From positions 1 to 64,000 of the forward strand of contig JBBRLJ010000011.1 of the NCBI GenBank assembly GCA_038231435.1: a stretch of DNA of 64,000 nucleotides, read 5' to 3'. The stretch's first letter is position 1, and every line of letters starts with the position of its first letter. The notes beneath the pieces were generated by a model. The model searched no databases and was not told the origin of the DNA. It saw nothing but the letters and a program-made list of their open reading frames with translations. Source of the DNA: Planctomycetota bacterium (GTDB lineage Bacteria > Planctomycetota > UBA11346). Made by a program: the position numbers and the translations under genes. Shown one piece after another: positions 1 through 42,782 of this stretch.

Positions 1-137
1 ATAGCGTCTTCAGCGGACATCGGCGGTCTCCGGTTGCGGTTGTTGGCGTGGTAACCACAACCTGCCGCCCTGGCCGCCGATGTCCTTTTCTATCCCGCTC
101 TTAGAGCTCGATTCCCGATATTCCGTGAAGAACCAAA

Positions 138-207
138 CTTTCTGGCCGCCCGGCGGACAGAAAGAAGGGCGACAAAGGCCGTGGGGGGTTTGGGGGCGGA
201 GCCCCCG
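138..207. repeat. Hairpin plus partial REP-like element downstream of pilin cassette A
   Basis: CTTTCTGGCCGCC-C-GGCGGACAGAAAG hairpin, then CGACAAAGGCCGTGGGGGG...GGGGGCGGAGCCCCC, which resembles the right arm of the 18481-18832 element. Confidence 0.5.
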
Positions 208-216
208 ACTATCAGC

Positions 217-3322: not shown

Positions 3323-3332
3323 GGCCAGCGCC

Positions 3333-6723: not shown

Positions 6724-6725
6724 CC

Positions 6726-10649: not shown

Positions 10650-10650
10650 G

Positions 10651-11394: not shown

Positions 11395-11929
11395 TGTTCT
11401 TCCAGCTGCAGATGTCATCGGCAGGTGACCCTGGTGGCGTCAGCACCGCATCCCGCCCCTCGGACCAGATGCCGAAATCGCTCGATCCGTAGGTGTGCGC
11501 GGCCCACGCGATGTGCAGCGGCTTGCTCCAGCGATCCTTCAATTGTCCCGCCGAGGTCAGGCCGGTCTTGCTGGGGACATTGAAGCCCGTCATGTACACC
11601 AGGCCGAGGTACCAGTCCGGCGAGCGCAGGGTGACCAGCGGATACTGAGGGTGGGTGGTAGCATACATCCGCGGATCGCCATCGATCTCGCTCGGGTTGG
11701 TGATGTCCTGGAACAACGCCCACGCGTGCCGGATGACGCCGTCCTTGCAGGTCACGGTCTTGATCTGGTAGGATTCGATGGCCGCGGCGACCGTGCTCAC
11801 CAGCTGCGTGGTGGCGCTGATGTCGGCCTTGTTCTTGATGCTCACCAACACCGGGTAGGACATCCCGGCGAGCGCGGTGATGACAGCGACGACGACGAGC
11901 ATCTCGATGAGGGTGAAGGCGTAACGCAT
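11384..11929 (-). CDS. GspG-like major pseudopilin A1, 181 aa
   Basis: GGAGG RBS; MRYA|FTLIEMLVVVAVI; C-terminal DRWSKP...SEGRD...DDICSW matches the GspG pattern. It is the 3' part of track ORF 11384..13114. Confidence 0.88.
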   Translation of the reverse strand: MRYAFTLIEMLVVVAVITALAGMSYPVLVSIKNKADISATTQLVSTVAAAIESYQIKTVTCKDGVIRHAWALFQDITNPSEIDGDPRMYATTHPQYPLVTLRSPDWYLGLVYMTGFNVPSKTGLTSAGQLKDRWSKPLHIAWAAHTYGSSDFGIWSEGRDAVLTPPGSPADDICSWKNNDQ

Positions 11930-12301
11930 CGATGCTCCTCCGGACCGCTCGGTCGGGTCATGCTGAGACGGCGGCGCTCGTCGACAACCGGACAAGCGTG
12001 ATCGTAAGCCGTAGCGCCAGCAATAGTCTGGGGCCAAAATGCCCATCCCTGCTAGGTCGTCGACACGAGCCGATTCGGGGCGTGTGCGACACGCCGGCTC
12101 TCCAGGGCTGTCCAATCGTTCCGACTGTCGACAATGCGCGCCGCAGCCGGTGGACCGTTGGGCTGGTTCAGGGTAGTTCTGCGGCACTTGTACGACGCGG
12201 ATTTCCCCTTCGGTCCGGATCCCGCCGCAGGTGACGTCGGTCCTCTGGTCAATCCGATCACCTCCATACAGTCCCGCGGCACGGCCTCGTGAAGGAACCT
12301 C

Positions 12302-21886: not shown

Positions 21887-22381
21887 CTACCTGGGGTACA
21901 AGGAGGCACTACTGCCTGGAGCAATGATTGGATTGCCCTCGGTCACCTTCCCCTCCGGAGTGACCACGAATATCCGGGCCATGATCCCCGCGGTCTCTGG
22001 TGAAACGGATCCTGGGTCCGTCCCTGGATCACCGTTGACGTGAGAACCCACGACCGGGATCAATACCCGCCAACTTCCAGGAGGCGGAGAACCAGGCCCG
22101 GGTGGTCCACCCGCCTTCAAGTTTTCGCTGATGAAGTTGGCCTTGGCGTGCTCGTAATCCAACTGCTTGTTCTTGTACTTGTCGCGGGCGAAGGCCACCC
22201 CGCTGGCGATTGCCGACTGCATGTGATTGTTGCTGCTCGGTGGCTCCGCGACCGGCGGCCTGGGCTTCGGCGGCCCATTGGGCTGCGAAGCAACATGGCT
22301 CTGCCCCCCACCGCCACCACACCCACTCAGGCATGCTGTGCAGATGGCGATTGCTAGCGCGATGAAAAGGCTCTTCGGCAT
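21887..22381 (-). CDS. Pro-rich lipoprotein
   Basis: Lipobox LSG|C; shares motif blocks with 32909-33550. Confidence 0.75.
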   Translation of the reverse strand: MPKSLFIALAIAICTACLSGCGGGGGQSHVASQPNGPPKPRPPVAEPPSSNNHMQSAIASGVAFARDKYKNKQLDYEHAKANFISENLKAGGPPGPGSPPPGSWRVLIPVVGSHVNGDPGTDPGSVSPETAGIMARIFVVTPEGKVTEGNPIIAPGSSASLYPR

Positions 22382-22506
22382 TGGGCTTACCTTGAATATG
22401 CAGGACGAACTGCTGCAAAGCAATCCGGACATCCGATCCTGGACAATCCTGACGGATCAGGCGATGCGAGGGAAGGGCACCGAGTCATCCAGCTGCAGCA
22501 AATGGT

Positions 22507-26846: not shown

Positions 26847-26874
26847 CGGCCCTGGCGCACCTGGAGCATCCCGA

Positions 26875-26904: not shown

Positions 26905-26953
26905 CACGTCGATGCCACGCCCTGCGGGTGCGTGGTTGGCGCCCGACCCCGGA

Positions 26954-29431
26954 TCAGGGGCGGACGAACACGACTTGGTCGATTCCCGGCGATTCGACCC
27001 GCTTAGTCGTGCCGTCGGCCCAACATACCTCTACGGCATCGACATGATCGCGTGAGCCCAGGCCGAAATGCTTGTCGGTGGCGTGTTGGCAGCGGTACGA
27101 ATCGCCCGAGACGATCACCGCGACCTGCGTGGACGTGCCGGCGGTGACGGTGATGCGGGCCCCCATCGGCGAATGTCCTGGTTCATCCTGCAGGCGCACC
27201 CCCAGCCAATGGTTAACGCGCGACATGTGGTTGACGGCCAAGTGCAACACGGGGTGCAACGGCAGATACGGATGGGTCCCCATGCGCGTCTCGACGAGCA
27301 GTAGGTCAGCCAGACCATCGCCGTCGAAATCCTCGCTCACCGCCTGCCGGCCGTCCCACTCGAAGCCGACGCCCATCGGATAGGCGACATCGCGGAAACC
27401 CTTCGCCGCCGCTCGCGTCTCGTTCATGAGCAGCGCCTTGTGCTCGAATGGATTCCAGGAGTAGCCGGCCAGTCCGTCAGCCTCGCCTTGGAAGAACGCC
27501 GCAACCTGGTCCTTCGCCATCGCCGGGCTGGCATAGATGTCATGCGTCCAGTAGCGCGTGCAGTAATCCTTGGCGGTGGATCTGCTCATGTTGCCGTTGG
27601 TCAGGAAGAGGTCGAGCATCCCTTCGTTGGCGACATCGAGCGCGGTGCAGCCCCACGACCAGCCGGTGCGCGCCACCTGGTCGTTATAGGCAGCCTGACG
27701 GTAGTGGTGGTCAGAGGTGCCCAGCAAGAGCCGGTTGCCGTAGCCCATCTTCATGCGCTCGCGTTGGTGCTCCGGGAAATCCGCGCGCCCGAGCTTCATG
27801 TATTCGAGCCGGCGCGCGGTGGTCGAGCCCATGCCGCTGACGAAGATGTCGAGGATCCCATCGCCATCGACATCGGCGATGACGTGCGACATGCCGAAGG
27901 TAGCGCGTTCGTCGATCATCGCGGCGGTGGTATCGGCGAACCCGCCCTTGCCGTCGTTGCGGAAGAGATCGACTCCCGAGAAGTCGTTCACCGTGACCAG
28001 ATCGGCCTTGCCGTCGCCATCGAGATCGACGATGGAGGCGCTGTAGTTGCGGCGGTTGCGCTTGCCCGCCAGGCCCGCCGACTCGGTGGCGTCGCGGAAG
28101 ATGCCGCCGCCGGCATTCAGCAGCAGGAACGATGGCCAGCCGTCGTCGGCGTCCCAGTACGGCGTAGGCAGGTTCCCGTCCTCATACGGCCTGCGGTACT
28201 GGCCGATCCACAGGTCGAGGTTCCCGTCTCCATCCACGTCGCCGGCGGTCATGCACTCGGGTAGCCGGAATCGTTCCCTCGCCAGACCCGCCAGCGGTAT
28301 GCCCGGGGCGGCGAAGGCGCCTCCGGCGGAGCCGTGGAACAGGCACGGAGGCAGATCCGGTCCGGCGACCACCAGGTCTGGCAGGCCGTCGCCGGTGAAA
28401 TCGCCGATGACGCCAGCGGTGATGTAGGGCCGTGGATCGTTAGAGTTGGCATTGAGCGGAACGGCGCACAGCGGGCGCCGCTCGAAGGCGATCTCGCCGG
28501 GACGGCTGCGATTGAGCAGCAGCGCATTGATGCTCGGCAGGGCGATGTCTGGGGCTCCGTCGCGATCCACGTCGTAGACCAGTACCGGATCGATGGTGCT
28601 ATCGGCATCGGCGCCCAGCTCCGCTGGGGATCTGGTCCAGGCGTCGACGAAGGCATCGTCGCCGATCCGCTCGGTGAGGCTCAGCTGGGTGGCGTCGATC
28701 GCGTCCGCCACATGATGGACTGGGAGGCTGCCCGTAACCCGTCGTCCGTCGTCCGTCGTCGGAAGCACGCCATCGGCGTCGATTCTTCCACCCCAGGTGA
28801 TCTTGATCACGCCGTGGACGACGAGTCGGCGGTGCTGGACGGGATGGGTGATGAACAGCTTCATCGACACCGTGGACCGTGCCGTGCCATCCGGGTCGAG
28901 ATCGAAAGTGGCGTGGTGCCACTCGCAGTGCTCGAGCCGGTATCCATCGGCGACGGCCTTGTCGACCACGTCCCGCCATGCGGTCTGATCGAGCGTGGCG
29001 GGCGCTCCGGCCATGGCGGTCACCGTAATGCCCCAGGAGTGGGCTGAGGTCTCGGCGAATGGCCTGATCGCGAGACTGGTGAACGCGAACGAGGCGAGGT
29101 CCTCGTGCTGGCGTTCGCCGTGGGCGCGCATGGCGTCCCACAGGGCCACGAAGGTCTGCTCGTACTCCTGGGCCAGCACCTCCTTGCCCCACACGGTCTG
29201 GTCGAGGCGTTGGCGTTCCGCGCGCATCTCGGCGGCGGTACGTGGCGCCTTGGGCTGCGCCGCTGGCGGTGCGGGCTGACGCTCTGCGCCGCTCGGCGCC
29301 GTTGGCGCCTGGGATGGCGATCGCATATCGCCGTGGGCGATCCAGAAAGCGGCGACGATGATGCAGGCGGCGACCGCGAGGATGCCAACGACCGCAACGA
29401 TGACCGTCCGGCCCGGTGCCTGATCAATCAT
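26954..29431 (-). CDS. CRTAC1-like FG-GAP / ASPIC-UnbV protein
   Basis: Close paralog of 12302-14731 (RLDQTVW-KEV-AQEYE, GMGSTTARRLEYMKLGR, GDSYRCQH). Confidence 0.9.
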   Translation of the reverse strand: MIDQAPGRTVIVAVVGILAVAACIIVAAFWIAHGDMRSPSQAPTAPSGAERQPAPPAAQPKAPRTAAEMRAERQRLDQTVWGKEVLAQEYEQTFVALWDAMRAHGERQHEDLASFAFTSLAIRPFAETSAHSWGITVTAMAGAPATLDQTAWRDVVDKAVADGYRLEHCEWHHATFDLDPDGTARSTVSMKLFITHPVQHRRLVVHGVIKITWGGRIDADGVLPTTDDGRRVTGSLPVHHVADAIDATQLSLTERIGDDAFVDAWTRSPAELGADADSTIDPVLVYDVDRDGAPDIALPSINALLLNRSRPGEIAFERRPLCAVPLNANSNDPRPYITAGVIGDFTGDGLPDLVVAGPDLPPCLFHGSAGGAFAAPGIPLAGLARERFRLPECMTAGDVDGDGNLDLWIGQYRRPYEDGNLPTPYWDADDGWPSFLLLNAGGGIFRDATESAGLAGKRNRRNYSASIVDLDGDGKADLVTVNDFSGVDLFRNDGKGGFADTTAAMIDERATFGMSHVIADVDGDGILDIFVSGMGSTTARRLEYMKLGRADFPEHQRERMKMGYGNRLLLGTSDHHYRQAAYNDQVARTGWSWGCTALDVANEGMLDLFLTNGNMSRSTAKDYCTRYWTHDIYASPAMAKDQVAAFFQGEADGLAGYSWNPFEHKALLMNETRAAAKGFRDVAYPMGVGFEWDGRQAVSEDFDGDGLADLLLVETRMGTHPYLPLHPVLHLAVNHMSRVNHWLGVRLQDEPGHSPMGARITVTAGTSTQVAVIVSGDSYRCQHATDKHFGLGSRDHVDAVEVCWADGTTKRVESPGIDQVVFVRP

Positions 29432-32400
29432 CTTTCGTCCCGGCCTTCGCCCCATCCTCCTCGACGACGTCGATGATGGCTCCGGCCTTCAGCGGTCCCC
29501 GCACGCGTTGCTCGTGGTTCCCCGGCCACACCACGGTGAGCTCTGGTGCGCTCGCGCTGGCGCCGAGTCCGAAGGTCAGCGTGGTCTCGTCCTGAGAAAG
29601 GTAGTTGGCGCCGCAGTTCACCTGCTTGGCGGAACTCGCGCCGCCGTCGCGCGCCAGCCGAACCACCGCGCCGATGCCGAAACGATTGCTGCGCGTCCCC
29701 CGCAGCCTGACCTTCACGTAATGGTTGTCGTTTGCGCAGGCGTTCGCCAGCAGCCGCGGCCGAGCGCCGTAGTCGTTCACGATCACATCGATGCGCCCGC
29801 TGCCGGTGAGGTCGGCGGCGGCGGCACCGCGGCTGTTGCCAACATAGGATTCGGGACCCGAGGCGTCCGCGAGATAGAAGCGCCCGCCGTCACGGACGAA
29901 GAACTGGTTCGCCTGATTCGCAGCGGGAGTGTCGGCGACCCAACCGTTGGTGAGGTACATGTCCTCGTCGCCGTCGTTGTCCACGTCGAGGAAGTTCCCG
30001 CTCCACGACCATCCCCGGTCGCCCGGCTCGACCATGCGCTCGTCGACCGACACGAAACGCCGGCCATGGTCGTTGTGGAAGAGCTTGTTGCCCGAGATGT
30101 AGAAAGTCGAGGCGAGGATGCGCTTATTGATGGTGATCTGGGAATCGGCCTGGGGAAAGACCCAGCCGAGGGACTTGGAGAACATATCGATCTGGGTGAT
30201 GTAGAGGTCCATCCAGCCGTCGTCGTCGAGGTCCACGACGCTTGCGTTCATCGAACTGCCGCGGTCGTCCACGCCGAAGGAGCGGGCGCGATCGACGAAG
30301 GTGCCGTCGCCCTGATTGATGAACAGCTCGCAGCGGCCGTAGTCATTGGCCACGAACAGATCCATCCGCCCGTCATGATCGACGTCGATCGCCGCACTCG
30401 CCAGCGTCCAGCCGGTGCTGCCCACGCCAGCCCGGTCGGTGACGTCCGCGAAGCGGCCGCCGCCGAGATTGTGGAAGAGGCGGTTCTTCCCGCCATTGCG
30501 CCCATCAAGCGACGGATTGATCACGCCGTAATGGCCGACGTAGCAATCGAGCAGGCCGTCGTCGTCATAGTCGAAGAACACCGCGTCGTGGGCCGCCTCC
30601 CCGGTGGCGATCCCGCAGCTGGCGGTGACGTCGGTGAAGCGCCCATCCGCTTCCTGGTGGAACAAGCGCGAGGGTTTCTCGGAATGGACGACGAACAGGT
30701 CGAGTCGCCCATCGTTGTCGTAGTCGACGAATAGGGCGTGGTGCGCGTCCAGGACTCCCTCATCGGCGATTCCCCGTGCGGCGGTGACATCCTCGAAGCG
30801 GCGCCCGCCGAGATTGCGTAGCAATCGGTTGCCTCCATCGCCAGGCAGGAAGAGGTCGGGCAGGCCGTCGCCATCGAAGTCGCCGACGGCGACTCCCGAC
30901 CCGGTGAGGGTGATGGCCTGCACCACGCGCTTCTCACTGCCTTTCGCGCCGAATCCCTCGCGCGCAACGGCCGCGACCGCCGGCAGCCCGCTGGCGTCGC
31001 TCGCATCGGTGAAGAGATGGCCCGGATACGTGGCAAGCACGCGCGACTTCCCGGCGATCTCGGCGGCGGCCCAGGCGGCGTTCTCGCGCGGCGGGACCGC
31101 GAACTGGACGTCCATCAGCATGTTGTTGCAGATCTTCTCGGTGATCCTCGGCCGCAGCTGGCGCACCGCGGCTTCGTCGGCGGTGCGGATGAACAGCAGC
31201 GCGAGCTCGGACATGCGGTCGGCGAGCAGTTCGAGCGCGAACGGATCAGCGGGGCGAGCCTCGGAGGATTTCCACGCCGATTCGATCAGGCTCCAGTGCA
31301 GCGTGGTGTCACGCAGGGCGTCGAGCTCCCAATCGAGCAGCTGCATGCGTTCATGGCGGATGGCGACAGGCACGCCTGGATTGCCCATGATCTCGATGGT
31401 GACGTCGCCATTGGCGGCGATCGAGCGCGGGAAGAGGTTCTCGAGGGCGTTCGCCGCCCACGCCAGGTCGATGTACGGCCTGCGCTCGGCGAACGGCGGA
31501 GGTTGGTGCAGGATTTGGCCATTCACCGGTGTCCAGAAGGCATTGTGCTGCATCGGCGCAACGCCACGCGCCAGGTAGTCGACGTAATGAACGAGTTTGG
31601 CCTCAATCGCTGCAAACGATTCGCGATCGAAACCGACCTTGGTCATGCGGTTGACCAGCTCCATCTGGCGCTGCTCCGGGTCGGTAGCGTCGCTCCACAC
31701 CTTCGCATTCCAGGAGCGCAGCGCGGCGATCTTGCCGGCGATGGCGCGGCGCGTGTCAGCGAGCAGCTCGATGTCGGCGACCGGGCCGCGCTCCGACCGC
31801 ACCGCGCCGACCGGAGCGCTGGCGGACGATGGCCCGGCAGCGGCGGCGTCGGCCGTCGGCCCGAGCGTCGCAAGTACGTGTGCGAAGGCCTGGCGCACGT
31901 CCTCGTCATCGATGGCGCGGTGCTCGCGCTCCTGGGCGCTCGTGGCGCAGGCGGTCAGGAAGTCAGTGGTGATGACGGTCGCGACCGCCGCGAGGGATCT
32001 GATGCCGGATTCGCTCAGTGGTTTCAGGTCGACCGCGCGCTGTTCGAACAGGCCAACGCCCTCGATCGCTTCGGCGATGATCGCATGCAGATAGCGTTTG
32101 TTCTCTGTGACGCGGTGGTAATCGCGGTTCATCACCGAGCGCACCGGATCCCCGCCGAACTGCGGATCGACCGCGACCATGAGCGCCACCGCATCGCGCA
32201 ATGCGCTCGGTAGCGGTTCCACGACATCATCGCCCCCGAGGGTGGCATTGGCGGGGGTACGAGCGGAGGCGGATCGCCAGACATCATAGACCAGGGTCTT
32301 GCACGCCTCGATCTTGAGCAATGCGATCGGATCGGGCACCTGCCTGCCGGTAAAGTGCGCGTCCATCATGCGCACGGTCGTCCAGCAGGTGGCATCCTTG

Positions 32401-32582
32401 CCGGATTCCTGGCTGATCGTCTCTGCCTGCAGCGTCTGCAGGGTGCGCTTCAGCCGATCGGCAGAGGGAGAGCGTACCGAGGAAGCATCCGGACCTGCCA
32501 GGCGGGGGGGCGAGCGCGTCGCGACCGCCAACGCGATGGCGACCACGGCCAGCGCCACGACCGCCAGGATGACTCGACTCAT
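29424..32582 (-). CDS. Exported protein: helical N-terminal half fused to FG-GAP / ASPIC-UnbV, 1052 aa
   Basis: Signal anchor; DFDGDGLPD, DYDNDGRLD, GWSWSG, NYLSQ...FGLG; N-terminal half has histone-fold-like segments. Confidence 0.9.
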   Translation of the reverse strand: MSRVILAVVALAVVAIALAVATRSPPRLAGPDASSVRSPSADRLKRTLQTLQAETISQESGKDATCWTTVRMMDAHFTGRQVPDPIALLKIEACKTLVYDVWRSASARTPANATLGGDDVVEPLPSALRDAVALMVAVDPQFGGDPVRSVMNRDYHRVTENKRYLHAIIAEAIEGVGLFEQRAVDLKPLSESGIRSLAAVATVITTDFLTACATSAQEREHRAIDDEDVRQAFAHVLATLGPTADAAAAGPSSASAPVGAVRSERGPVADIELLADTRRAIAGKIAALRSWNAKVWSDATDPEQRQMELVNRMTKVGFDRESFAAIEAKLVHYVDYLARGVAPMQHNAFWTPVNGQILHQPPPFAERRPYIDLAWAANALENLFPRSIAANGDVTIEIMGNPGVPVAIRHERMQLLDWELDALRDTTLHWSLIESAWKSSEARPADPFALELLADRMSELALLFIRTADEAAVRQLRPRITEKICNNMLMDVQFAVPPRENAAWAAAEIAGKSRVLATYPGHLFTDASDASGLPAVAAVAREGFGAKGSEKRVVQAITLTGSGVAVGDFDGDGLPDLFLPGDGGNRLLRNLGGRRFEDVTAARGIADEGVLDAHHALFVDYDNDGRLDLFVVHSEKPSRLFHQEADGRFTDVTASCGIATGEAAHDAVFFDYDDDGLLDCYVGHYGVINPSLDGRNGGKNRLFHNLGGGRFADVTDRAGVGSTGWTLASAAIDVDHDGRMDLFVANDYGRCELFINQGDGTFVDRARSFGVDDRGSSMNASVVDLDDDGWMDLYITQIDMFSKSLGWVFPQADSQITINKRILASTFYISGNKLFHNDHGRRFVSVDERMVEPGDRGWSWSGNFLDVDNDGDEDMYLTNGWVADTPAANQANQFFVRDGGRFYLADASGPESYVGNSRGAAAADLTGSGRIDVIVNDYGARPRLLANACANDNHYVKVRLRGTRSNRFGIGAVVRLARDGGASSAKQVNCGANYLSQDETTLTFGLGASASAPELTVVWPGNHEQRVRGPLKAGAIIDVVEEDGAKAGTKDD

Positions 32583-32908
32583 GGGATGCTCGAGCGCGGA
32601 TAGTGCCTCGGTGCGTGCGTAGACTTCGACACGGCCCCACCGCCGTGGTGACCGACGACGGAGGAACGCGCGCGTCTGGTCACGAACCGCATCGCCGTCA
32701 CTGTTGAACCGCTCGGTTCGCTGTCCATCGTGAGATGGGCATCGAGCCCGGTCCTGTCATGCCAACCTGCACGGCGTGTTTCACATCCTTCGTCGAGCCG
32801 CGACGCGAGGGGATGCCGAGGTTGCGCGGGGCATGGATGATCGCTGGCGTCGGGCACCCCGGCTACGCCCGACCGCTGCTGATCGTCCGTACCTCGGGGA
32901 AGGATCTC

Positions 32909-33550
32909 ATGAGACATGCCTGCTCGCTCGGAGCCATCGCACTCGGAGTGCTGCTGCTGTCGGTGACGGCCTGCGGCAGCAAGCCGGCCCCTGCGGTAGC
33001 GACGACGACATCCTCCACCGACCTGCCGGCTCGGGCCCCTTCGGCGCCACCGGCTCCAAACGGGCCCGAGGCCCAGAAGGCGGCGATCGAACATGCGATC
33101 GCCTTCGCGCAGAGCAAATACTCGGGAAAATTGAACTTTTCAGACCCCGTGGCGGTGTTCGAGCCTGCGCCTCCAGCCAGCACGGCCACCACCGCTCCGC
33201 CGCCGATGCCGCCACGCGGCTCCAGCAATCCCAGCCTCGCGCCCTCACCGCCTCCGACCGCGGCCGAACTCGAGGCGATGGGATTGAAACCTCCGACCGG
33301 ATACGATCCTGCCAAGGCGCCTCCACCCGTCGGCGGGCTCGCACCGCCAGTCCAGCCGGCACCGCGCACGGATCCGAAGAGCTATTGGCGGGTGATGTTC
33401 CGCCTGATCGCCCCGGCCAGCAGCGATTCCGGAACCCCTCCCATGACCACTCGCGTGTTCGCCGTCTATCCGAGCGGGAAGGTGGTCGAGCTGGAGCCGC
33501 TGTCGATCCCGGTGAACGTCCGGATCGGCGTGCATCCTCCGACCCCCTGA
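32909..33550 (+). CDS. Pro-rich lipoprotein
   Basis: AAGGA RBS; lipobox VTA|C; paralog of 21887-22381. Confidence 0.8.
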   Translation: MRHACSLGAIALGVLLLSVTACGSKPAPAVATTTSSTDLPARAPSAPPAPNGPEAQKAAIEHAIAFAQSKYSGKLNFSDPVAVFEPAPPASTATTAPPPMPPRGSSNPSLAPSPPPTAAELEAMGLKPPTGYDPAKAPPPVGGLAPPVQPAPRTDPKSYWRVMFRLIAPASSDSGTPPMTTRVFAVYPSGKVVELEPLSIPVNVRIGVHPPTP

Positions 33551-33900: not shown

Positions 33901-33938
33901 ACGATTCAGCGCCGTCCGGTTGTCATTTGCTGAATCGT
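33901..33938. promoter_or_regulatory. 10-bp perfect inverted repeat just upstream of cassette B
   Basis: ACGATTCAGC-N18-GCTGAATCGT, ending 17 nt before the ATG at 33956. Confidence 0.5.
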
Positions 33939-33955
33939 CTCAATCTGGGGCAAGC

Positions 33956-34687
33956 ATGCGGCAGCGAAGCGACGATCGGATCCCACCACCACCCCTCGCC
34001 CTCCCCGGGACGCATCGCCGGGGATTCACCGCCATCGAACTGCTCATCGTCATCGGCCTGATGCTCATCCTCATGGCCGTGGCGGTGCCTTCGGTGATCC
34101 CGGCCCTGCGCAAGGGAGCACTCAACAACGCGGCGACCGACATCACCTCGTGCTGGCGCCAGGCCCGCTACCTGGCGATGACGACCGCCATACCGAGCGG
34201 AATCAATCCCCCGCACTTCGGCATGATCATCCGCCAGGTCGCGGGCACCCGTCCTTACGTCGCCCTCATCTACGACAATGTCGACGCCTCGGGTCCGCCG
34301 AAACTCCTCACCACCGGAGAGGACCCCGACGATGTGACCACCTACGACTCGTCCAAGCCGCCGGTCGTGCAGTCCATCTTCAACCGCAATGTCATCGTCG
34401 CGAGCGCGGCACCCTCCGGTACCGTCGACACCAGCGACCGCACCATCGTCGTCTACGCGCAATACCAGACAGGCCTGCCGATCGCGCCGGCGGACGTGGT
34501 CGCGGGCCGCGGGATGGTCGCGGCGCCGACCAGTCTCGGCGTCTCGGCACCGTCGGCGAGCGCGTCCACGGTGTGCCCGGTCCTGAATCTGCAGACCCTG
34601 GATTATACCCAGGGCCTGCGAGGATACTGCCTCGGCCTCTCGTTGTATCATGCCGGCGCCATCGCGACCCGGTCCGTCCAGGAGTAG
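33956..34687 (+). CDS. GspH/FimT-like prepilin protein B1, 243 aa
   Basis: RRG|FTAIELLIVIGLM; paralog of A2 (PPHFG, FNRNV, YAQY-TGLPI, SLYHAG). Confidence 0.9.
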   Translation: MRQRSDDRIPPPPLALPGTHRRGFTAIELLIVIGLMLILMAVAVPSVIPALRKGALNNAATDITSCWRQARYLAMTTAIPSGINPPHFGMIIRQVAGTRPYVALIYDNVDASGPPKLLTTGEDPDDVTTYDSSKPPVVQSIFNRNVIVASAAPSGTVDTSDRTIVVYAQYQTGLPIAPADVVAGRGMVAAPTSLGVSAPSASASTVCPVLNLQTLDYTQGLRGYCLGLSLYHAGAIATRSVQE

Positions 34688-34712
34688 CGGCATGCACGGC
34701 GCGAGGATACGG

Positions 34713-37700
34713 ATGTCGCGTGGATTCACGCTCTTCGAGGTGATGATCAGTCTGCTGATCCTCACCGTCGCGATCCTGTCGACGCTGGCCCTGCTGCCGG
34801 TTGGGCTCAAGGCGCTGCAGCTGTCGCGCAGCCAGATGTTCGCGGCCGCGACCGCGATCAATCTGGGCAACAGCTTCCACAATGCCGTGCCCAAGCTCGG
34901 TCTCGGCCAGATCAGCCCCACCTACGTCATCCGCGCTGGCGCCCCGGCCAGCACCGTGGCGCCTCCCTCGACCGTCCCCGATTGCGGGTGGGCAGCGCAG
35001 ATGCGCAACAGCATGCTCCAGTCGTCGCCGTACCAGTACAACGCCGAGCAGGATCTCGGCGGCTGGTTCAAGGGCGTATTGCCGGTACCCATCCAGATCG
35101 CCCGTCGCCTCGACTCGACCAGCGACGAGATCCAGAACCTGCTCGATCAAGGCGGCATGCTCTGGTATCCGGATCCGAATTTCATGACCGGTCTCAATAG
35201 CGGCGCCGCCCTGGACAAGACCCTGCAGACCATGCCCAGCTCCGAGATCCAGAAGCTGGTGTTCGCCTTCGCCAGCCTGCCGCAGCAGAACCTGCTGACC
35301 TCGCATCCGGTCGAGAGCCTGCCGTGGTACGAGGTCTATCCATTTCCCCCGGCGTGGCTGTCCATGGAGGCGAAGGGCATCGAAGCGCGCAGGCTCGGCG
35401 ACTGCGCCGGACCCATCGGCGTCAAGACCGCGGTGACGGTACGCGGCCGTGGAACGGGCGATTGGACGTGGTGTGGAGGCATGGTGTCCTACGACGACGC
35501 CGGGCACTCGCGCTATGAACCGGTCTATTGGCGCGTGCCCACGCGCGAAGGCGCCGTTTCCGATCCGGTCGGCTGGGGCGCATGGTTCAACAAGGAGAAG
35601 CCGCTCGACGATCCCGCCGCATACAACGTCGGCAGCAACGGCGGCGCGAACGACTGGGACAAGGGCTGGTACCAGGGCTGCGCCTTCCACCACGGCAGGA
35701 ACTGGCGCTATTTCTCGATCAATCAAGGCGGCCTGTGGAAGGGCGGCAACGGCGTCGCCTCGGTCGATCCGTTCTATGCGGCGAACGCCGCGCAGTGGGC
35801 GTACATCTGCTTCCAGCGCCTGTCCGGTGGCGATGCGCAGTGGCTGGGCTGCCCGCGCGCCAACTATACCAGGACCATCAAGGATGATGCCGTGGGCACG
35901 CTCGAAGGAGTGCCGAACGCCTACACCACGATCATCGATCCGATCGACCCCCCACTCGCGGGCGGCGACATCGCTCCCGCCTGGAACAGCACGGTCGTCG
36001 CGGTCCCCCCCCAGAACGCATGGCCTGCGCACACGGCGGCGAAGTTCTGTAGGGCGGGCTGGCTGCCGATTCGTGGCCTGCAGGACAATCCCACCGAGGT
36101 GCGTTTCGACGACACCATGGGCAATTTCTATTTGGCGGATGGCAACCTGAACCAGGGAACCCTGGCGCGCACCATCCAGCCGCAGACCTGCAGACCGACC
36201 GCGACCTACGAGATGCGCGCGAATTACCGCGATCGCGCCATCGATCTCTGGCAGGCCGTGATGCCGTCGAACTCCGGCCTGACGACGCTCACCAAGAACG
36301 TCAACGCGCTCGTCGAGGTGGAAAAAGGCGGAACCATGGTCGATTGCGACAAGTACGAGTATCCGCCACTCGAGCTCAACAAGTTCAAGTTCATGCTGCC
36401 GTCACAGCTCGATGCGAGGGACTGGCCGATCCATCCCGCGCAGGTGATGGCGCTGAGCTACCTGGCGCACGCCGCCATGCTGGTGACCGGCTACAGCGCG
36501 CCGTTCGCGCAGGATCTCACCCAGTCGGCACAGGTGAACTCCATCAAGATCGCCTGGGAAGGGCTGAACTGGACGTACCGGAAGGGGCCGCAGGAGGCGG
36601 CCTTCACCGAAGTCGCGCCCGGGCAGGGCATCACCAAGGACGCCCTGATCGTGGCGGCCGACGCCGCGCCCGGCGCCACCACCATCACCATCAAGAACGA
36701 CACGTCCAATCCCTACGTCCTCTACCCAGGCGACGTCATCACCTTTGCCGAAAGCTACAAGCAATGGTGGTTCCGCTACGGCCTGCCGCAGCGCGGAAAC
36801 GGCGACATCTGGTCGTACCGTGAAGCTGCGACGATGGCCGGCGGCATCTACGACAATCCACCGGTGCTGTTCCCGAACATGAATTACCGGCTGCACACCT
36901 TCCGCGTGGTCTCGTTCAACGGCAATGTCGGCATGCCCAACGAGGTCGGGGGCAATTCCACGGTGAGCATCACCATCACGCCGCCGCTGCCCACTTATCC
37001 AGCGAATCTCAACGACGCGACCGCCAACCCGGTGCTGAACAACGGCGTGTCGGTGTTCGCCGGCAGCCAGATCCGTCGCTTGTGCAACGAGGCAGACCGC
37101 GCATTCGCCCGCAAAGCATACGAGATGTGCATGGCCTGGGCGCAAGCGTACTGCTCGGAAGAGCCCTACGATTGCGGCGCGCCGCGCATGGCCAACCATC
37201 AGACGATGATGGACAAGCCGATCGCCATGTTCGACCTCTTCTGGGATGCGGCCAATGGCGCTGCGAACAGCCCGAACGGCCGCGCCGTGCGCACGCCAAT
37301 GAACTACCAGCAATGGGCAAACAACCCGATGCGGTACAGCACCGAGTCGTTCTACCGATGGATGGTGCCCAACAACAATGTTCCGGATTCCTACTTTTGG
37401 AAGGGCATCGCACCGCTCCAGAATCGCCACGACATCTCGCATAGCGGCCCGACCACCTGGGGCGCTCCGGCCTGGGACATGATGACGCACAACGACCAGC
37501 TCAAGCCGCCCACTGATGGCAACGACCAGCAACGCTTCTGGGCAGTCAAGCCGTTCGCACCGTTTCACCGCTCGCGCCAACTCGCGTTCTGGTCGGTCGA
37601 TTGGAAGGCCTTCGAGGATGCTGAAGTGGTCCCCAGCGCGCCGGTCGACTACGCCAAGCAGAACATGCAGATCTACAATTACTGGTATCTGTTTCCCAAT

Positions 37701-38045
37701 GGGGGGCTGAACGCCGTGAACACCTTCTGCGGCATCCCTGAATCACTCTACGCATGGACGAATCCGCTACGCACCACGCGTTTCGTCGACGTGGCGAGCA
37801 GCGAGGAAGGCGGACAGTTGTGGCAGAACGCGCAGGGCATGGTCCCGAACGACAATCCGTGGGCCCCGCCCGGAGCGGACAAGGTCATCACCTTCGATAC
37901 GCGCATGGGCCACTGGGGCGCCGACCGCAACGGCAATGGCAAGCTCGACATCGGCCCCATCCCGAAATCTACCCGATTGAAGGCCGTCAAGGTGGCCGAC
38001 TTCAATTTCTACGATCCGATCATGCGCGTGAACGCGAGCAACTGA
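34713..38045 (+). CDS. Giant GspI/PilV-position prepilin protein B2, about 1110 aa
   Basis: MSRG|FTLFEVMISLL; shares blocks with A3 (DEIQNLLDQGG, ATYEMRANYRDRAIDLWQAVMP, GHWGADRNGNG); alternative start 34692. Confidence 0.9.
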   Translation: MSRGFTLFEVMISLLILTVAILSTLALLPVGLKALQLSRSQMFAAATAINLGNSFHNAVPKLGLGQISPTYVIRAGAPASTVAPPSTVPDCGWAAQMRNSMLQSSPYQYNAEQDLGGWFKGVLPVPIQIARRLDSTSDEIQNLLDQGGMLWYPDPNFMTGLNSGAALDKTLQTMPSSEIQKLVFAFASLPQQNLLTSHPVESLPWYEVYPFPPAWLSMEAKGIEARRLGDCAGPIGVKTAVTVRGRGTGDWTWCGGMVSYDDAGHSRYEPVYWRVPTREGAVSDPVGWGAWFNKEKPLDDPAAYNVGSNGGANDWDKGWYQGCAFHHGRNWRYFSINQGGLWKGGNGVASVDPFYAANAAQWAYICFQRLSGGDAQWLGCPRANYTRTIKDDAVGTLEGVPNAYTTIIDPIDPPLAGGDIAPAWNSTVVAVPPQNAWPAHTAAKFCRAGWLPIRGLQDNPTEVRFDDTMGNFYLADGNLNQGTLARTIQPQTCRPTATYEMRANYRDRAIDLWQAVMPSNSGLTTLTKNVNALVEVEKGGTMVDCDKYEYPPLELNKFKFMLPSQLDARDWPIHPAQVMALSYLAHAAMLVTGYSAPFAQDLTQSAQVNSIKIAWEGLNWTYRKGPQEAAFTEVAPGQGITKDALIVAADAAPGATTITIKNDTSNPYVLYPGDVITFAESYKQWWFRYGLPQRGNGDIWSYREAATMAGGIYDNPPVLFPNMNYRLHTFRVVSFNGNVGMPNEVGGNSTVSITITPPLPTYPANLNDATANPVLNNGVSVFAGSQIRRLCNEADRAFARKAYEMCMAWAQAYCSEEPYDCGAPRMANHQTMMDKPIAMFDLFWDAANGAANSPNGRAVRTPMNYQQWANNPMRYSTESFYRWMVPNNNVPDSYFWKGIAPLQNRHDISHSGPTTWGAPAWDMMTHNDQLKPPTDGNDQQRFWAVKPFAPFHRSRQLAFWSVDWKAFEDAEVVPSAPVDYAKQNMQIYNYWYLFPNGGLNAVNTFCGIPESLYAWTNPLRTTRFVDVASSEEGGQLWQNAQGMVPNDNPWAPPGADKVITFDTRMGHWGADRNGNGKLDIGPIPKSTRLKAVKVADFNFYDPIMRVNASN

Positions 38046-38049
38046 GCCC

Positions 38050-39876
38050 ATGGAATCCCACGCTCCCACGCGCCGGCTGCGCTCCCTGGTTCCGACCCTG
38101 GCACGACTTGGACGTGCTCGCAGGGCCTCCGGCGTTGAGGGCTTCACTCTGATCGAGATGATCGTCTCGATAGCCCTGGCTTCGATCCTCATCCTCTGCG
38201 CGGTGACCTGTTTCCGCATGATCTCGAAGGCAGTGTCCACCGCGAACGCCATCAACACCGAGAATACCATGCTGCGCACCGGCATGGAGCTGGCTCTCTT
38301 GGATGTCGACTACTGGCAGTCCTACGCGAACGATCGCCAGCCCTTCAACAAGGGCTGGACCCGGGTGCGGTCAGAACCGGACAATCCCGCGACGAATTTC
38401 ACCGACGAGTCGATGCGCAGACGCCCGTTCCAGCCGGTGCGCTATTCGCCGCGCACCGACTCCGCCGAACGCGACCCGTTTCCAGGAACGCACGGCAACT
38501 CGATTCCACGCCTCGACTACTCGATCTACAACTCACCGACCCCGACCCGACCGAAATGGAACGATCCCTGGGACGCGAGCGGCGACTACTGGAAAGACCC
38601 GTACAACCGCAACGACATGGTGCCGAACCCCAACGGCATGCTGGCACATGACCCGCGCTCGGTCTCACGTCAGACCCTGCGCCCGTTGCGCGTGCCCGAG
38701 TGGGAAGGCAATGACTGGGGAGCTTGCTGGCAGTTCGGATATCCGCGTCTCGCCGTCGGCGACTATACACTGGTGAACGCCTCCGACGCGCGTGACGTTG
38801 CCGGACAGCCGGATCCGCACTGGCCCGCCGGCAACAACGTCTCCATCCCGCTCGACCTCACCTCGACCGGCGCTGCCACCGACAGCTATCCCGATTCCGG
38901 CACGCTCGACATCCCGTTGGACAAGGGCTTGGCCACCTACCAGCCGCTGCTGTGGACCAGTCTCTACCACCGTCTGTGGTACCTGGGGCTGTACGAATAC
39001 ATGACGCCGGGAACGCCGATCTTCTTCAACGATGCGCGCGGCAATGCGCCCGACTGGTTCACCAGACCGATCGCGCCGATGAATCAGGCCACGTCGAACA
39101 CCTGGGGTTTCGATTACATCTGGGACCGCGACTGGCAGCTCGACAACAAGGGCTCGGGCGGCGGCAATGTCGACGTCGCGGTGCGCATGGGCGACACCTA
39201 CACGCCCACCAACGCCCTGTGGGGTGCCTCGCGCATCTCGGGCGGCTTGCCATTCCGACCGAATTGGCCCGAGACCAAGCTCTACTCCGCCAATGCCGAC
39301 GACAACCAGCACCAGTACCCGTTCAGCATCTTCTTCGGCAACAGTGGCTACTGGGGCGGCACCGAGGGCTACTCGACCGGCGTGTCGACCTGGGGCAACC
39401 TCCAGGGTTTCGAGCGTGGCGACCAGACGCGCAACGACTACGCGGTGCTCTCCAATACGGTATGGATGCCCTTCAATCCCACGGACGTGGAGCGCGCCGA
39501 TCCGGATACCGGCACAGCATTGAACCCCGGCAACAACATCCGTTCGACCCTGGGCAAGCTCGACTACGTCTCGAAGCCGCCCAACGCGCCGGTGCTGACC
39601 ACCACCATGTTTCGTTATCTGCGTGTCGCTGGGGCCGGCGATCTGACCGTGGCCCGCGTCAGCATCGACAACCCCGATGGTCACCGGGTGGAACTGACCC
39701 TGACGCCGTTCGGAACCACCTATCGCGGCGCGCGGCAGCACTGGCGCCTGTACAGCAAGGGCATTGGCGCGGACAATATCAATCCGCCGCTGCCGGCTTC
39801 ACGATTCAGCTTGGTCGACAAGACCTGCATCGGGGACTTCTACGATGAGACGAACGGGCCCTACTATGTTCCATAG
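38050..39876 (+). CDS. GspJ/PilW-position prepilin protein B3, 608 aa
   Basis: VEG|FTLIEMIVSIA; shares RRPFQPVRY, PFGTT-RGARQHWRLYS and GPYYVP with A4. Confidence 0.9.
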   Translation: MESHAPTRRLRSLVPTLARLGRARRASGVEGFTLIEMIVSIALASILILCAVTCFRMISKAVSTANAINTENTMLRTGMELALLDVDYWQSYANDRQPFNKGWTRVRSEPDNPATNFTDESMRRRPFQPVRYSPRTDSAERDPFPGTHGNSIPRLDYSIYNSPTPTRPKWNDPWDASGDYWKDPYNRNDMVPNPNGMLAHDPRSVSRQTLRPLRVPEWEGNDWGACWQFGYPRLAVGDYTLVNASDARDVAGQPDPHWPAGNNVSIPLDLTSTGAATDSYPDSGTLDIPLDKGLATYQPLLWTSLYHRLWYLGLYEYMTPGTPIFFNDARGNAPDWFTRPIAPMNQATSNTWGFDYIWDRDWQLDNKGSGGGNVDVAVRMGDTYTPTNALWGASRISGGLPFRPNWPETKLYSANADDNQHQYPFSIFFGNSGYWGGTEGYSTGVSTWGNLQGFERGDQTRNDYAVLSNTVWMPFNPTDVERADPDTGTALNPGNNIRSTLGKLDYVSKPPNAPVLTTTMFRYLRVAGAGDLTVARVSIDNPDGHRVELTLTPFGTTYRGARQHWRLYSKGIGADNINPPLPASRFSLVDKTCIGDFYDETNGPYYVP

Positions 39877-41344
39877 CGGGCCTCACGCCAGGAAACCGGC
39901 TCGCGCTCACGCCGGACCGAACCGCAGTGGCGCGGTGCTGATCATCGTGGTCGGCCTGTCGATGGTGCTGCTCGGCGTGGCCGTCAGCTTCATGGTGAAC
40001 ATGCGCTCCTCCGCCCAGGAGACGCGCTTCCTGCTCGGGGAAGCTCAGGCGCGACTGATGCTGCACGCGGCGATGATGTATCTCCAGGAATCCTCGCGCC
40101 TGGGCTGGGGCGAGGAGACCTACGGCTGGACGGACATCCGCGATGGCTCGCTCGGCCCCAGGCCGACCCGCAACTTCAAGTTCCGGACCGACTTCTCGGG
40201 TCTCGCCACCGGCACGCCCGTCGATGGCTCGCCAGACGGTAACTGGATCGGGGCCGCACCGACCGACTACAACATCCCGCCACCCAACTGGTGGAAGCGG
40301 ACGTGGCCTCGCTATCGCGCCTTCCCTGACGAGACGGACGTGCTGCAGTTTCCGCAATCGAGTTCGCGGTGCTGGCCGTGCCCGGGATCAGTCGGACGAT
40401 TCCCGATGGCCGTGCCGGTCCAGCCGCCGTACGCGACCCAGCTGCGTTACGCCTACAACCCGATCCGCCACGATCCGGCGATCCCGGAATACGGCAGCCC
40501 GGGCTGGGATCAGGTCTGGGATCCGACCTGGAACCCAGGTGACATCAATTGGTGGGCGGCCAAATCTCCCGGGTTGATCATCAATCCGACCTTCGATCCC
40601 GCGAACGGCTCGACCGGCATGCTCGATCCGCAGCCCCAGGCGGACTTGTGGCAGGATCCCGCATACGCGGGGTTGCCAGGCCAGAAGCCAGACTTCATCA
40701 CCGGCGCGATCCAGCCGGGCGTGACCCAGGGCGACTGGACGCACTTCGTCGACGATGGCTCGCCGCGTCCGCCGGTGAGCGTCCAGCTCGCGGTAAAGCC
40801 AGGCATGGAAAACACCTGCTGGTTCCGCATCTACCGTGAACTGCAGTTCGACCACGACAACGATGGCATACCCGCCTACGACCGCGTCGCTCTGTACGAC
40901 CCCAAGAATCCCGGGCTCAAGAACTACAACGTCTTCATCATCGCCTGCGGCTCCGGCGGGACGCGCGGCTACCGCTTCTGGGATGCCACCGACCTGGCGA
41001 ACTGGGAGACCAAGAACGGCCTGACGCCCGGAATAATCACGCGCGGGCAGGAATTCGCGAAGGACTCGCCACTGTTCGCCAGCAGCTTCGATGCCGAGTC
41101 GTTCCACGCGCTGCTCGCGAGCAGCCGCATCCTCTGGTACCGCGTCGAATGGACGGCCATGCAGGGCGGTGGCTGGGATTCGGCAAACTTCGGGTTCGTC
41201 GAGACCGTTGGCTGGAACGTCGCCTGGCAGAATCTCGAAGGAGCCTATCCATATGGCGGCAGCTTGCGCGGCTCGGCGCCAAAGACCTATGGTGGCAACT
41301 TCAAATGGGTGCAGCGACTCGACCACACGCCCCCGAACTGGTGA
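39866..41344 (+). CDS. GspK/PilX-like protein B4, 492 aa
   Basis: RSG|AVLIIVVG with no Glu5; shares ESRLGWGEET-like block and WVQRLDH-PPNW with A5. Confidence 0.88.
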   Translation: MFHSGPHARKPARAHAGPNRSGAVLIIVVGLSMVLLGVAVSFMVNMRSSAQETRFLLGEAQARLMLHAAMMYLQESSRLGWGEETYGWTDIRDGSLGPRPTRNFKFRTDFSGLATGTPVDGSPDGNWIGAAPTDYNIPPPNWWKRTWPRYRAFPDETDVLQFPQSSSRCWPCPGSVGRFPMAVPVQPPYATQLRYAYNPIRHDPAIPEYGSPGWDQVWDPTWNPGDINWWAAKSPGLIINPTFDPANGSTGMLDPQPQADLWQDPAYAGLPGQKPDFITGAIQPGVTQGDWTHFVDDGSPRPPVSVQLAVKPGMENTCWFRIYRELQFDHDNDGIPAYDRVALYDPKNPGLKNYNVFIIACGSGGTRGYRFWDATDLANWETKNGLTPGIITRGQEFAKDSPLFASSFDAESFHALLASSRILWYRVEWTAMQGGGWDSANFGFVETVGWNVAWQNLEGAYPYGGSLRGSAPKTYGGNFKWVQRLDHTPPNW

Positions 41345-41381
41345 TCGCCCCCTCCCCGCTCCTCCGAACGGATACCTGACG

Positions 41382-42782
41382 ATGGCCCATACTCCCCAGG
41401 ATTCGGAACGCCGGTGTACCCGCCATCAGGCCGGCTTCACGCTGGTCGAGTTGCTGATCGTCATCACCATCATCACTGTCTTGGCGGGCTTGACGCTCTC
41501 GGTCGTCAACATGGTGCGCGAATCGGCGCGTGTGCTGCAGACTTCATCGCGCATGCAGGCGATCATCAATGCCCTGACCTCCTACGGCTCGCACGAAGGC
41601 GGCGCCGCGGCGGAACTGCAGAACGCCTGCGCGCTCGGCGGCAGCGGGCGGATGGCCACCATCGCGGCGATCGTCGATAGCATCATCCCAGGCTGCGCCG
41701 CGCCGCCGGATTTCCTCTCCATGCTCAGGGCCGGCGGCAGCACCGTGTTCACAAGCTACAACATCAACAACACCAACTACGCCAGCTCGCTCTACAATGG
41801 CAACAACACCCAGAGCTCTGAGGTCATCCACCTCTATCAGCGTCTGAGCAAGCAGCTCTTCGACGTCATGCCCCCGTCCGGCGCGATGTGGACCCCTGGC
41901 GACTACACCACCAACTGGGCTTTCCAGTGGCCCGAGACCGATTGGATTCTGCCCGCGCCCGGAGCCAATCCCCCCATCCTGCCGTTTCCGTGGGGCAAGG
42001 CGGGATTGCGCATCGATGGTACGCTCTGCGACGTCTCGGTTCCGGAAGGGCTCGGGTACCCGAACGTCAGCCAATTCAACGAGGAGATGAATTCGGGCGG
42101 CGCCATCACCATGGCGAAGGAGCCGACCGGCAACAGCTGGGCGACGCTCGGCAACCTCGACGGACGCATCTGGAAGTGGACCTCGGCCAACCCGGCCCAG
42201 ACCGATTGGGTGACCCTGAACCGCGCCACCCGGTCGGACGGCATAGATCTACCCCCTGCCGCGCTCGCGGCCAACAAGCCGATGCCGTTCGATCTCGGCT
42301 GGCTCTCACCGCTCAAGAGCATCCAGCTGATGCAGGCCGCCGGCATCATTCCTCCAGGGGCCGCGGGATTGGATGCGTATCGCAACGATCGCCGCGCCCA
42401 TCAGCCATGGAATGATGCCTGGGGCAGCCCGCTGATCGTCGTCTATGCGATTTTCCAACCGCAGCGCTACCAGCGGGCCTTTGATCTGCAGAACCGCCGC
42501 GACCTGTTCATCCATGGTTCGCTCAGTTCCTACCAGTATGCGCGCTCGCTCTACCTGGCGGTGGGCGCCGCAGGATACACCCGCAACCCTGGCGTACCCG
42601 CCACCTGGATCGCCGCCGACGACGCCACCGTGCAGCGCGACTACTGGCTCCAGATCCGCGACGTCTGCAAGGCGAGCGATTGGACCGAGAGCTCCTTCAC
42701 CTCGCCCCCCTGGAAGGATGTGCGCGTGAAGAAGAAGAACGGCAAGAAGTGCCTGCTATCGACCCCGAACGAACTCAAATGA
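41382..42782 (+). CDS. GspG-like prepilin protein B5 with insert, 466 aa
   Basis: QAG|FTLVELLIV; shares QWPETDW, FPWGK-GLRID and WNDAWG with A7. Confidence 0.9.
   Translation: MAHTPQDSERRCTRHQAGFTLVELLIVITIITVLAGLTLSVVNMVRESARVLQTSSRMQAIINALTSYGSHEGGAAAELQNACALGGSGRMATIAAIVDSIIPGCAAPPDFLSMLRAGGSTVFTSYNINNTNYASSLYNGNNTQSSEVIHLYQRLSKQLFDVMPPSGAMWTPGDYTTNWAFQWPETDWILPAPGANPPILPFPWGKAGLRIDGTLCDVSVPEGLGYPNVSQFNEEMNSGGAITMAKEPTGNSWATLGNLDGRIWKWTSANPAQTDWVTLNRATRSDGIDLPPAALAANKPMPFDLGWLSPLKSIQLMQAAGIIPPGAAGLDAYRNDRRAHQPWNDAWGSPLIVVYAIFQPQRYQRAFDLQNRRDLFIHGSLSSYQYARSLYLAVGAAGYTRNPGVPATWIAADDATVQRDYWLQIRDVCKASDWTESSFTSPPWKDVRVKKKNGKKCLLSTPNELK

Follow-up and report, generated by a model that had tools for sequence, protein, structure and literature searches.

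The stretch of DNA analysed here, which we call the window, comprises 64,000 nucleotides of a Planctomycetota genome (G000), and our subject within it is region 33956-42782 on the forward strand, formed by five closely spaced pilin-type genes. These genes, B1 to B5, make up cassette B, and A1 to A8 are the genes of cassette A, which lies in the same window (217..11929, reverse strand); a C followed by a number denotes a contig of G000 or the cassette on it, and G014, G015, G018, G031 and G035 are related genomes. The order of B1-B5 is H-I-J-K-E, letters that stand for the GspH/FimU, GspI/PilV, GspJ/PilW, GspK/PilX and PilE positions of known minor-pilin sets. All five genes are on the forward strand. 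B1 (33956..34687) encodes a GspH/FimU-like minor pilin of 220 mature residues, B2 (34713..38045) a giant GspI/PilV-like subunit of 1,106 residues, B3 (38050..39876) an enlarged GspJ/PilW-like subunit of 577 residues, assigned also on its position in the cassette, B4 (39866..41344) a GspK/PilX-like subunit of about 470 residues, and B5 (41382..42782) an enlarged fifth pilin of 448 residues in the PilE position.

Class III signal peptides with Glu5 are present in B1, B2, B3 and B5, which match PF07963 over its cut-off (32 bits for B5). B4 has no Pfam or NCBIfam family match and lacks Glu5; in the K proteins of all nine cassettes found in G000 a Gly is followed by a hydrophobic run without Glu5. 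A hydrophobic N-terminal helix without Glu5 is the mark of the fourth (K) subunit of H-I-J-K tip sets. The best or near-best weak NCBIfam matches track positions H, I and J, all of them N-terminal and below cut-off: TIGR02596 for B1 (33 bits against a cut-off of 70, with GspH also among the weak matches), PilV TIGR02523 for B2 (27 bits against 52), and TIGR02599 and GspJ for B3. Solved-structure matches of B5 are limited to about the first 100 profile positions, and a B5 counterpart is present in all nine cassettes. No pilY1 gene lies within the cassette, B5 starting 37 nt after B4, and no further large open reading frame was found in any cassette of G000. Conserved D-x-[DN]-x-[DN]-G motifs occur at approximately 37900-37950 (B2) and 40850-40900 (B4), which we take to resemble calcium-binding loops.

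The predicted structure of B4 (predicted local distance difference test, pLDDT, 86) finds its best fold match among 48,161 chains in GspK of enterotoxigenic Escherichia coli (ETEC; 3ci0_K, Z 6.0, root mean square deviation 3.6, 107 residues aligned, range 29..465), and pilins occupy 8 of the top 9 rows. At this modest Z, the model points to a GspK-like pilin fold with a large insertion; the family profile of B4 recovered no solved relative by sequence. For B2 (predicted template modelling score 0.84) the comparison with XcpV aligns 85/89 residues across positions 26..1096 with a Z of 4.6, and EpsI gives 4.3, scores tied with unrelated rows for this 1,106-residue model. The model suggests that the pilin core is split: its helix comes from the N-terminus, its strands from the C-terminus, and about 1,000 residues lie in between. 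A small beta-barrel is modelled within the insert at about 637-787; it resembles phage tail and P22 coat I-domains, but a Z of 4-5.8 does not suffice to assign a function. The profiles of I and K have the N-terminal helix as their sole common part (probability 1.6%), and the ESM Atlas returned unnamed Planctomycetota prepilin clusters with low recognition. In the canonical trimer GspI is the smallest subunit and the largest is GspK, according to the portion of PMC7248040 consulted; here the sizes (B2 1,106, B3 577 and B4 470 residues) depart from that rule, with I the largest.

Cassette A has the eight-gene 'master' form A1-H-I-J-K-A6-E-A8, an order that is the same on C26 and in relatives. 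The original prediction, made from the letters of the window, had paired B1-B5 in order with A2, A3, A4, A5 and A7, and this correspondence holds at 52, 50, 47, 59 and 48% identity over aligned residues; the lack of counterparts of A1, A6 and A8 in B was likewise borne out. The three peptides it quoted are in both cassettes, with 9/22, 8/17 and 2/11 codons differing between them, and it was right to rule out a recent duplication and an assembly artefact as the origin of B, because the synonymous divergence (dS) is 0.8-1.7 in conserved blocks and the longest exact A-B DNA match within genes is only 24 nt. Runs X2-X4 contain pieces identical to B. The claimed alternation of conserved blocks with variable segments was confirmed, though its strength differs between the genes: the clustering of identity was reached in 0/2000 shuffles for B2, B3 and B4, it is weak in B5 (16/2000) and it is not seen in B1 (1223/2000). 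When 90 other paralogue pairs of G000 with similar identity are taken as controls, 3/90 are gappier and 5/90 more clustered than B2/A3, and 8/90 and 7/90, respectively, than B4/A5, whereas B1, B3 and B5 are ordinary (22-53/90 gappier, 37-90/90 more clustered). The block-and-insert pattern goes beyond that of ordinary paralogues for B2 and B4 only. In composition, the variable segments favour G, P, T and N. Mapped onto the models, they fall in low-confidence regions (mean pLDDT, variable segments against the rest, 65 and 87 in B2, 78 and 92 in B4) and make up 189/202 of the residues of B2 with pLDDT below 50.

To call B the 'second' copy was too narrow, since it is one of nine cassettes that tblastn and a motif scan found in G000, seven of them close (A, B, C27, C12, C30, C7 and C9) and two distant (C26 and C1). 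No special meaning was seen in the opposite orientation of B to A, and B does not stand out as A's inverted counterpart. The eight-gene order is found in A and C26, six genes in C27, and five in B and four others. In the C1 cassette (L006, G000:C1:35213-44075) the eight genes form two halves that diverge from an intergenic region containing a palindromic stretch. Over the whole genome there are 87 prepilin-motif matches, most of them real genes. The trees of each of the five genes give (B,(A,C27)) with support of 95-100 and disagree only at weakly supported nodes among C7, C9, C12 and C30; in an I-protein tree with 70 rows, a single branch (support 100) holds the seven close copies, surrounded by I genes found mostly in full cassettes of other genomes. 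We infer that a master cassette was duplicated within this lineage and that A1, A6 and A8 were lost more than once. Judged by these trees, each cassette is inherited as an intact unit.

The inserts are not 'swapped', as the prediction had put it, in view of the congruent gene trees and of MaxChi mosaic tests (p<=0.01) that are positive at synonymous sites in 1/105 triplets. Exchange of inserts between cassettes was rejected on the same ground, the 6/105 positive amino-acid tests being explained by rate variation. Between any pair of cassette genes, exact DNA matches extend to at most 54 nt. A switch between A and B by inversion or phase variation was also rejected, as flanking repeats were not found; exact inverted repeats of at least 20 nt exist only within paralogous genes and as two local hairpin-type repeats, and the best 15 of 87 read joints are skips consistent with paralogue contigs. 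Segment exchange and recombination-site repeats, the signs of a shufflon or of antigenic variation, were not found.

Relatives of B2 were detected in 22/36 genomes of the same family and in 0/24 others, and K profile matches in 30/47 and 0/53, respectively; the genomes surveyed are incomplete metagenome-assembled genomes, in which a miss is not an absence. All 45 loci drawn from the genome collection are titled Planctomycetota, and comprise 29 bare I-J-K trios, 11 loci with further pilins and 5 truncated ones. K matches reach 41 in G015 (37 near full length), 21 in G014, 16 in G018, 11 in G031 and 9 in G035, and the cassette copy number ranges from 1 to about 37 across the family. Of 20 regions fetched from G015, 19 are trios and one is an eight-gene master; the trios lack the other pilin parts and therefore must borrow them. 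The I family comprises 424 clusters at 50% identity; its ends are conserved, and differences in the middle take the length from about 560 to >1,700 residues.

The constraint on the inserts was assessed on orthologue pairs taken from the I tree (six I, five J and five K; dS 0.1-0.9), which belong to smaller trios of relatives and whose lineages are not independent. The pooled ratio of non-synonymous to synonymous substitution (dN/dS) in variable segments and core is 0.14 and 0.07 for I, 0.13 and 0.10 for J, and 0.22 and 0.09 for K; each pair falls within 0.05-0.40, lengths are nearly fixed, and only 11 gap columns in total occur across the 16 orthologous gene pairs. Run X5, from another study, contains a relative that differs from B at 136/2,137 bases (6.4%) in three cassette pieces, of which 39-65% is variable segment, and at 140/1,876 (7.5%) in three flanking pieces (cassette against flank, p 0.19); among 12 substitutions classified from the run comparison, a small and preselected subset, 9 are synonymous. 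The variable segments are thus under purifying selection between orthologues, which argues for fixed specialisation and not for phage-driven variation. Because of the orthologue constraint and the X5 comparison, each cassette keeps its own inserts, as fits fixed specificities.

These data bear on two other explanations. In the first, the cassettes would be a repertoire for evading phages or predators, in which the tips are functionally equivalent and selection diversifies their exposed loops, or recombination or inversion moves these between copies. Phages are known to use pilus tips as receptors, the variable segments of I and K evolve at about twice the dN/dS of the core, the copy number varies widely, and some amino-acid mosaic tests are positive; however, the dN/dS is low in every pair, lengths hardly change, the X5 relative is no more diverged in the cassette than in the flank, and the synonymous mosaic tests, the short exact matches and the missing flanking repeats all speak against exchange. 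We consider this explanation very improbable, and phage evasion, which the original prediction had offered as one possible function, does not, in the form of ongoing diversification, agree with the dN/dS of 0.13-0.22 in the variable segments. In the second, the copies would be redundant paralogues, expanded by dosage or drift, and their inserts tolerated surface loops without distinct ligands. That B1, B3 and B5 are no gappier or more clustered than ordinary paralogues, and that the variable segments are G/P/T/N-rich and modelled with low confidence, would agree with it; against it stand the purifying selection, the near absence of indels in variable segments between orthologues, the lack of stops in any of the nine K matches of G000, and the fact that the same five genes were reached by repeated reduction. 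We consider redundancy very improbable as well.

A shared sequence element precedes many of the cassettes. The hexamer GTCCGG was first seen before A, B and C30, and TGTCCGG occurs in 18/43 upstream regions of relatives where 1.6 are expected; the extended form GTCCGG-N15-18-(C/G)(G/A)TC is found in the forward direction in 29/43 and in reverse in 3/43, random windows of the same loci giving a mean of 1.5 and a maximum of 6. The spacer is 16 or 17 nt in 26/30 of the GTCCGG-CGTC/CATC pairs. TACG upstream of the hexamer was rejected as the second box, which in relatives lies downstream. A matrix trained solely on the 29 sites of relatives gave 106 sites in G000, and 7 of the top 8 precede pilin cassettes: C30, A (11967..11993, reverse strand, rank 2), C26, B (GTCCGG-N16-CGTC at 33914..33939, forward strand, 17 nt upstream of B1, rank 8) and other minor-pilin families on C18, C19 and C33. 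The remaining one (22404-22430, reverse strand) precedes a lipoprotein-like gene at 21887..22387, and C1 ranks twelfth; the motif of C1 faces only its I-J-K half. The window contains four exact matches, all before A1, B1, this lipoprotein-like gene and an FG-GAP/ASPIC-UnbV gene (motif at 12213-12238, forward strand; gene at 12302..14731), and four were reached in 3/100 shuffles. In G015, 11/19 scored starts reach 12 (three regions unscored), a set that is not fully independent, as some training loci apparently come from G015. None of the pilT, pilB, pilC, pilM, pilN and secretin genes tested was seen to be preceded by the motif (best 4.8 or less). In a second cassette family, at L106 (G000:C27:15458-23908) and L009 (G000:C18), the giant, of about 1,140 residues, occupies the K position and I is small; the family has the same upstream motif and no TIGR02600 match. 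A further cassette on C27 scores 24 with a 15-nt spacer; 1/500 random genes reaches 19.

The motif is likely the -35/-10 promoter of an extracytoplasmic function (ECF) sigma factor, a transcription-factor site being the alternative. Typical ECF promoters have CGT at -10 and AAC at -35, and about 55% of ECFs autoregulate (PMC8103513, portion consulted); the CGT box of the motif agrees with the -10 consensus given there. In G000, 38 sigma-70 region-2 matches exceed the cut-off; sites of at least 15 belong to two of the 38 scored sigma genes, one being the ECF gene C48:3858, whose orthologues carry such sites upstream in 8/27 cases (G000 included) as against 3/500 random genes; C22:67416 is the next candidate for the ECF gene. 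The motif common to A, B and many other cassettes suggests co-expression by an ECF sigma factor. The idea that A and B are condition-specific alternatives finds no support, as the same motif stands before both; the shared promoter also speaks against the one-at-a-time display of evasive tips, and its retention while synonymous sites approach saturation speaks against redundancy. As a tool, the motif offers a sequence-only route to further regulon members in uncultured planctomycetes.

The machinery that would serve these cassettes is encoded elsewhere in G000. Five PilT/PilU proteins and a single PilM exceed the cut-off, and pilT genes occur paired with pilB; three PilB/GspE-like ATPases, four PilC-like genes, five secretins and one prepilin peptidase were also found, with PF00482, PF00263 and PF01478 among the matches. 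All assembly and retraction genes are unlinked to the cassettes, and none of the nine has secretion machinery beside it. As GspD the C30 secretin scores 182 bits, as PilQ 149, and the GspE and GspD models remain below cut-off. At L093 (G000:C23:79436-91959) a pilM-like gene is followed by three tandem secretins of 810-840 residues, all far below named cut-offs. A genome search with PF05567 (PilY1) gave no match in this 88% complete genome, but the control matched nowhere either. As for the major subunit, A1 (11384..11929, reverse strand) encodes a GspG-like pilin and is a candidate to be shared among cassettes: its family profile matches the GspG C-terminal motif (3g20, E 3.8e-4; 2kep, E 9.8e-4), and PF08334 is found in 6/13 family members at E<=0.1. 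Three tandem PilA-like genes of 210 residues with near-identical N-termini (L008, G000:C16:15815-18092) are candidate major pilins as well, the first of them preceded by a weak motif (10.4). The proposal of the original prediction that A1 is the shared major pilin is therefore plausible, also on its GspG-like C-terminus, with the genes on C16 as rival candidates.

These features also raise the question of whether the cassettes belong to a type II secretion system (T2SS), as periplasmic pseudopilus tips acting as substrate-specific adaptors, each picking out different exoproteins, for instance the neighbouring ASPIC/UnbV proteins, that a shared machine would export. G-H-I-J-K is the T2SS gene order, and it is that of the master cassette, whose A1 has the GspG-type C-terminal motif, although such a head gene is present in A and not in B; the best fold matches are T2SS pseudopilins and the C30 secretin is better as GspD than as PilQ. 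Furthermore, all 5 FG-GAP/ASPIC-UnbV genes found in G000 adjoin cassettes A, B or C27 (including L001:15480-19001), and one has the motif: it is the gene at 12302..14731 (forward strand), divergent from A1, and two others lie near cassette B at 26954..32582 (reverse strand). On the other side, the five PilT/PilU, the PilM and the pilT-pilB pairs point to retractile type IVa pili, no gspC, gspD, gspE, gspF, gspL or gspM gene lies beside the nine cassettes (GspC, GspL and GspM were not searched genome-wide), and ASPIC homologues were not found in the 45 loci of relatives. We regard secretion adaptors as unlikely.

The interpretation we favour, and hold to be fairly probable, is that each cassette provides a cognate K-I-J cap with its adaptors for a shared type IV filament machine, that the inserts give each tip its ligand, and that many cassettes are switched on together. 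B1-B5 would then likely assemble into one alternative tip-and-priming complex, with motor, platform, secretin and major pilin encoded elsewhere. After prepilin processing, K, I and J would form the cognate cap; H, and also E, may link it to the shared major subunit, either GspG-like (A1-type) or PilA-like (C16), and the inserted domains and loops of I, J and K would be the cassette-specific binding surface that does the job of PilY1. One ECF sigma factor could turn on many cassettes, so that a cell or population might show a mixture of tips with different, fixed ligands. The view of the cassettes as alternative tip sets with different specificities, already put forward in the original prediction, is supported by the gene order, the Glu5 pattern, the fold of B4, and purifying selection on variable segments even though these are modelled with low confidence.

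Several observations weigh against this interpretation. The fold scores are modest (Z 4.3-6.0), and a Z below 8 can reflect a common arrangement; Foldseek on the models of B2 and B4 returned nothing at E<=0.001, and no ligand or adhesin domain was identified in this analysis. The low pLDDT of the variable segments stems in part from a thin alignment, their rate in I and K is about twice that of the core (Fisher p 7e-7 and 1e-6), and the dN/dS values come from trios of relatives and not from B itself. All three PilB-like ATPases fall short of both the PilB and the GspE cut-off. The -35 element of the motif differs from the usual AAC of ECF promoters (PMC8103513, same portion), the close-family cassettes C27, C12 and C9 are without motif and that of C7 is weak. 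A1 and the G-H-I-J-K order resemble a T2SS, so that a tip remaining in the periplasm is conceivable.

A bolder version, possible but doubtful in our judgement, is a multiplexed tip library in one family of uncultured Planctomycetota, in which a single ECF sigma factor would co-express as many as about 40 cognate I-J-K caps, all served by one retractile machine, each cap with a conserved binding surface of its own in the giant GspI/PilV that replaces PilY1. With such a library, many prey, host cells or polymers could be recognised simultaneously, through a receptor repertoire about tenfold larger than the tip sets studied. The cassettes also offer a natural panel for the study of cognate recognition among many minor-pilin paralogues on one machine, and of capping and ligand binding by PilY1-free tips.

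Around the cassettes, the motif-bearing small Pro-rich lipoprotein-like gene at 21887..22387 (reverse strand) has a paralogue on C27, and another Pro-rich lipoprotein-like gene, with 29% identity to it, lies directly upstream of B at 32735..33550 (forward strand). The ASPIC genes and the small lipoprotein-like genes were apparently block duplicated with the A/B/C27 clade. ASPIC proteins as a general substitute for PilY1 were rejected, none being found in the relatives' loci. Cassette B is flanked by a Ser/Thr kinase-TPR membrane protein (23478-26918, reverse strand) and a 61% identical copy without the kinase domain (43050-45389, reverse strand); the family has about 27 members in G000, some of which adjoin other pilin cassettes (C1, C18). 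An inverted-repeat element at 42790-43040, after B5, has high depth from many contigs, and a similar sequence adjoins an apparent tRNA gene end upstream of cassette C9.

Among known systems, the cassettes have in common with the T2SS GspH-I-J-K set (ETEC GspIJK, PDB 3CI0) and with FimU-PilV-PilW-PilX(-PilE) the gene order, the class III signal peptides and a K without Glu5; GspK is the top fold match of B4, and in the master cassette a GspG-like gene stands ahead of H. Unlike both, they lie apart from the machinery and their copy number runs from 1 to about 37; the absence of pilY1 distinguishes them from the type IVa priming cluster fimU-pilV-pilW-pilX-pilY1-pilE. Verru_Chthon is a recurrent four-gene prepilin cassette (TIGR02596, 02598, 02599 and 02600) of the Planctomycetota-Verrucomicrobiota-Chlamydiota group, with its long protein in the K position, whereas here the long protein is in I. 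Its families are the best or near-best weak matches of B1, B2 and B3, but these are all N-terminal and below cut-off (33 of 70, 18.5 of 51.4 and 17.1 of 256.5 bits), and B4 has no TIGR02600 match. We found no description of the cassette family or of the promoter motif in the literature searched, outside which lie subscription journals and the supplementary motif tables of PMC7826278, which could list the promoter; the parts consulted of the main texts of PMC7826278 and PMC11032199 mention neither the motif nor these pilins.

Several paralogous tip clusters on one machine are described for Myxococcus xanthus, in which three minor-pilin/PilY1 clusters share a machine (PMC8833165, in part), with about two PilY1 per genome across Myxococcota (PMC13190605, in part); there the variation is in PilY1, while here it is within the pilins and no pilY1 is in the cassette. 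The Myxococcus Kil pilus has four interchangeable minor-pilin tips with exposed variable domains that act in combination, but it belongs to the Tad family and has only four tips (PMC12075869, excerpts). In cyanobacteria, two PilY1-free core minor-pilin complexes, Com and EPS, have a domain inserted in a core minor pilin; there are only two of them, the insertion, a beta-solenoid, is in PilX and their regulation is opposite (PMC13759059, excerpts), whereas here the complexes are many, the largest insertion is in the PilV/GspI position and a promoter motif is shared. Multiple tips per machine are thus already known; in the literature searched we did not find the copy number, the reversed sizes, the constraint on inserts or the common promoter. 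The known sets of alternative pilus tips have two to four members; this family extends the number to dozens, with the payload in what is normally the smallest subunit.

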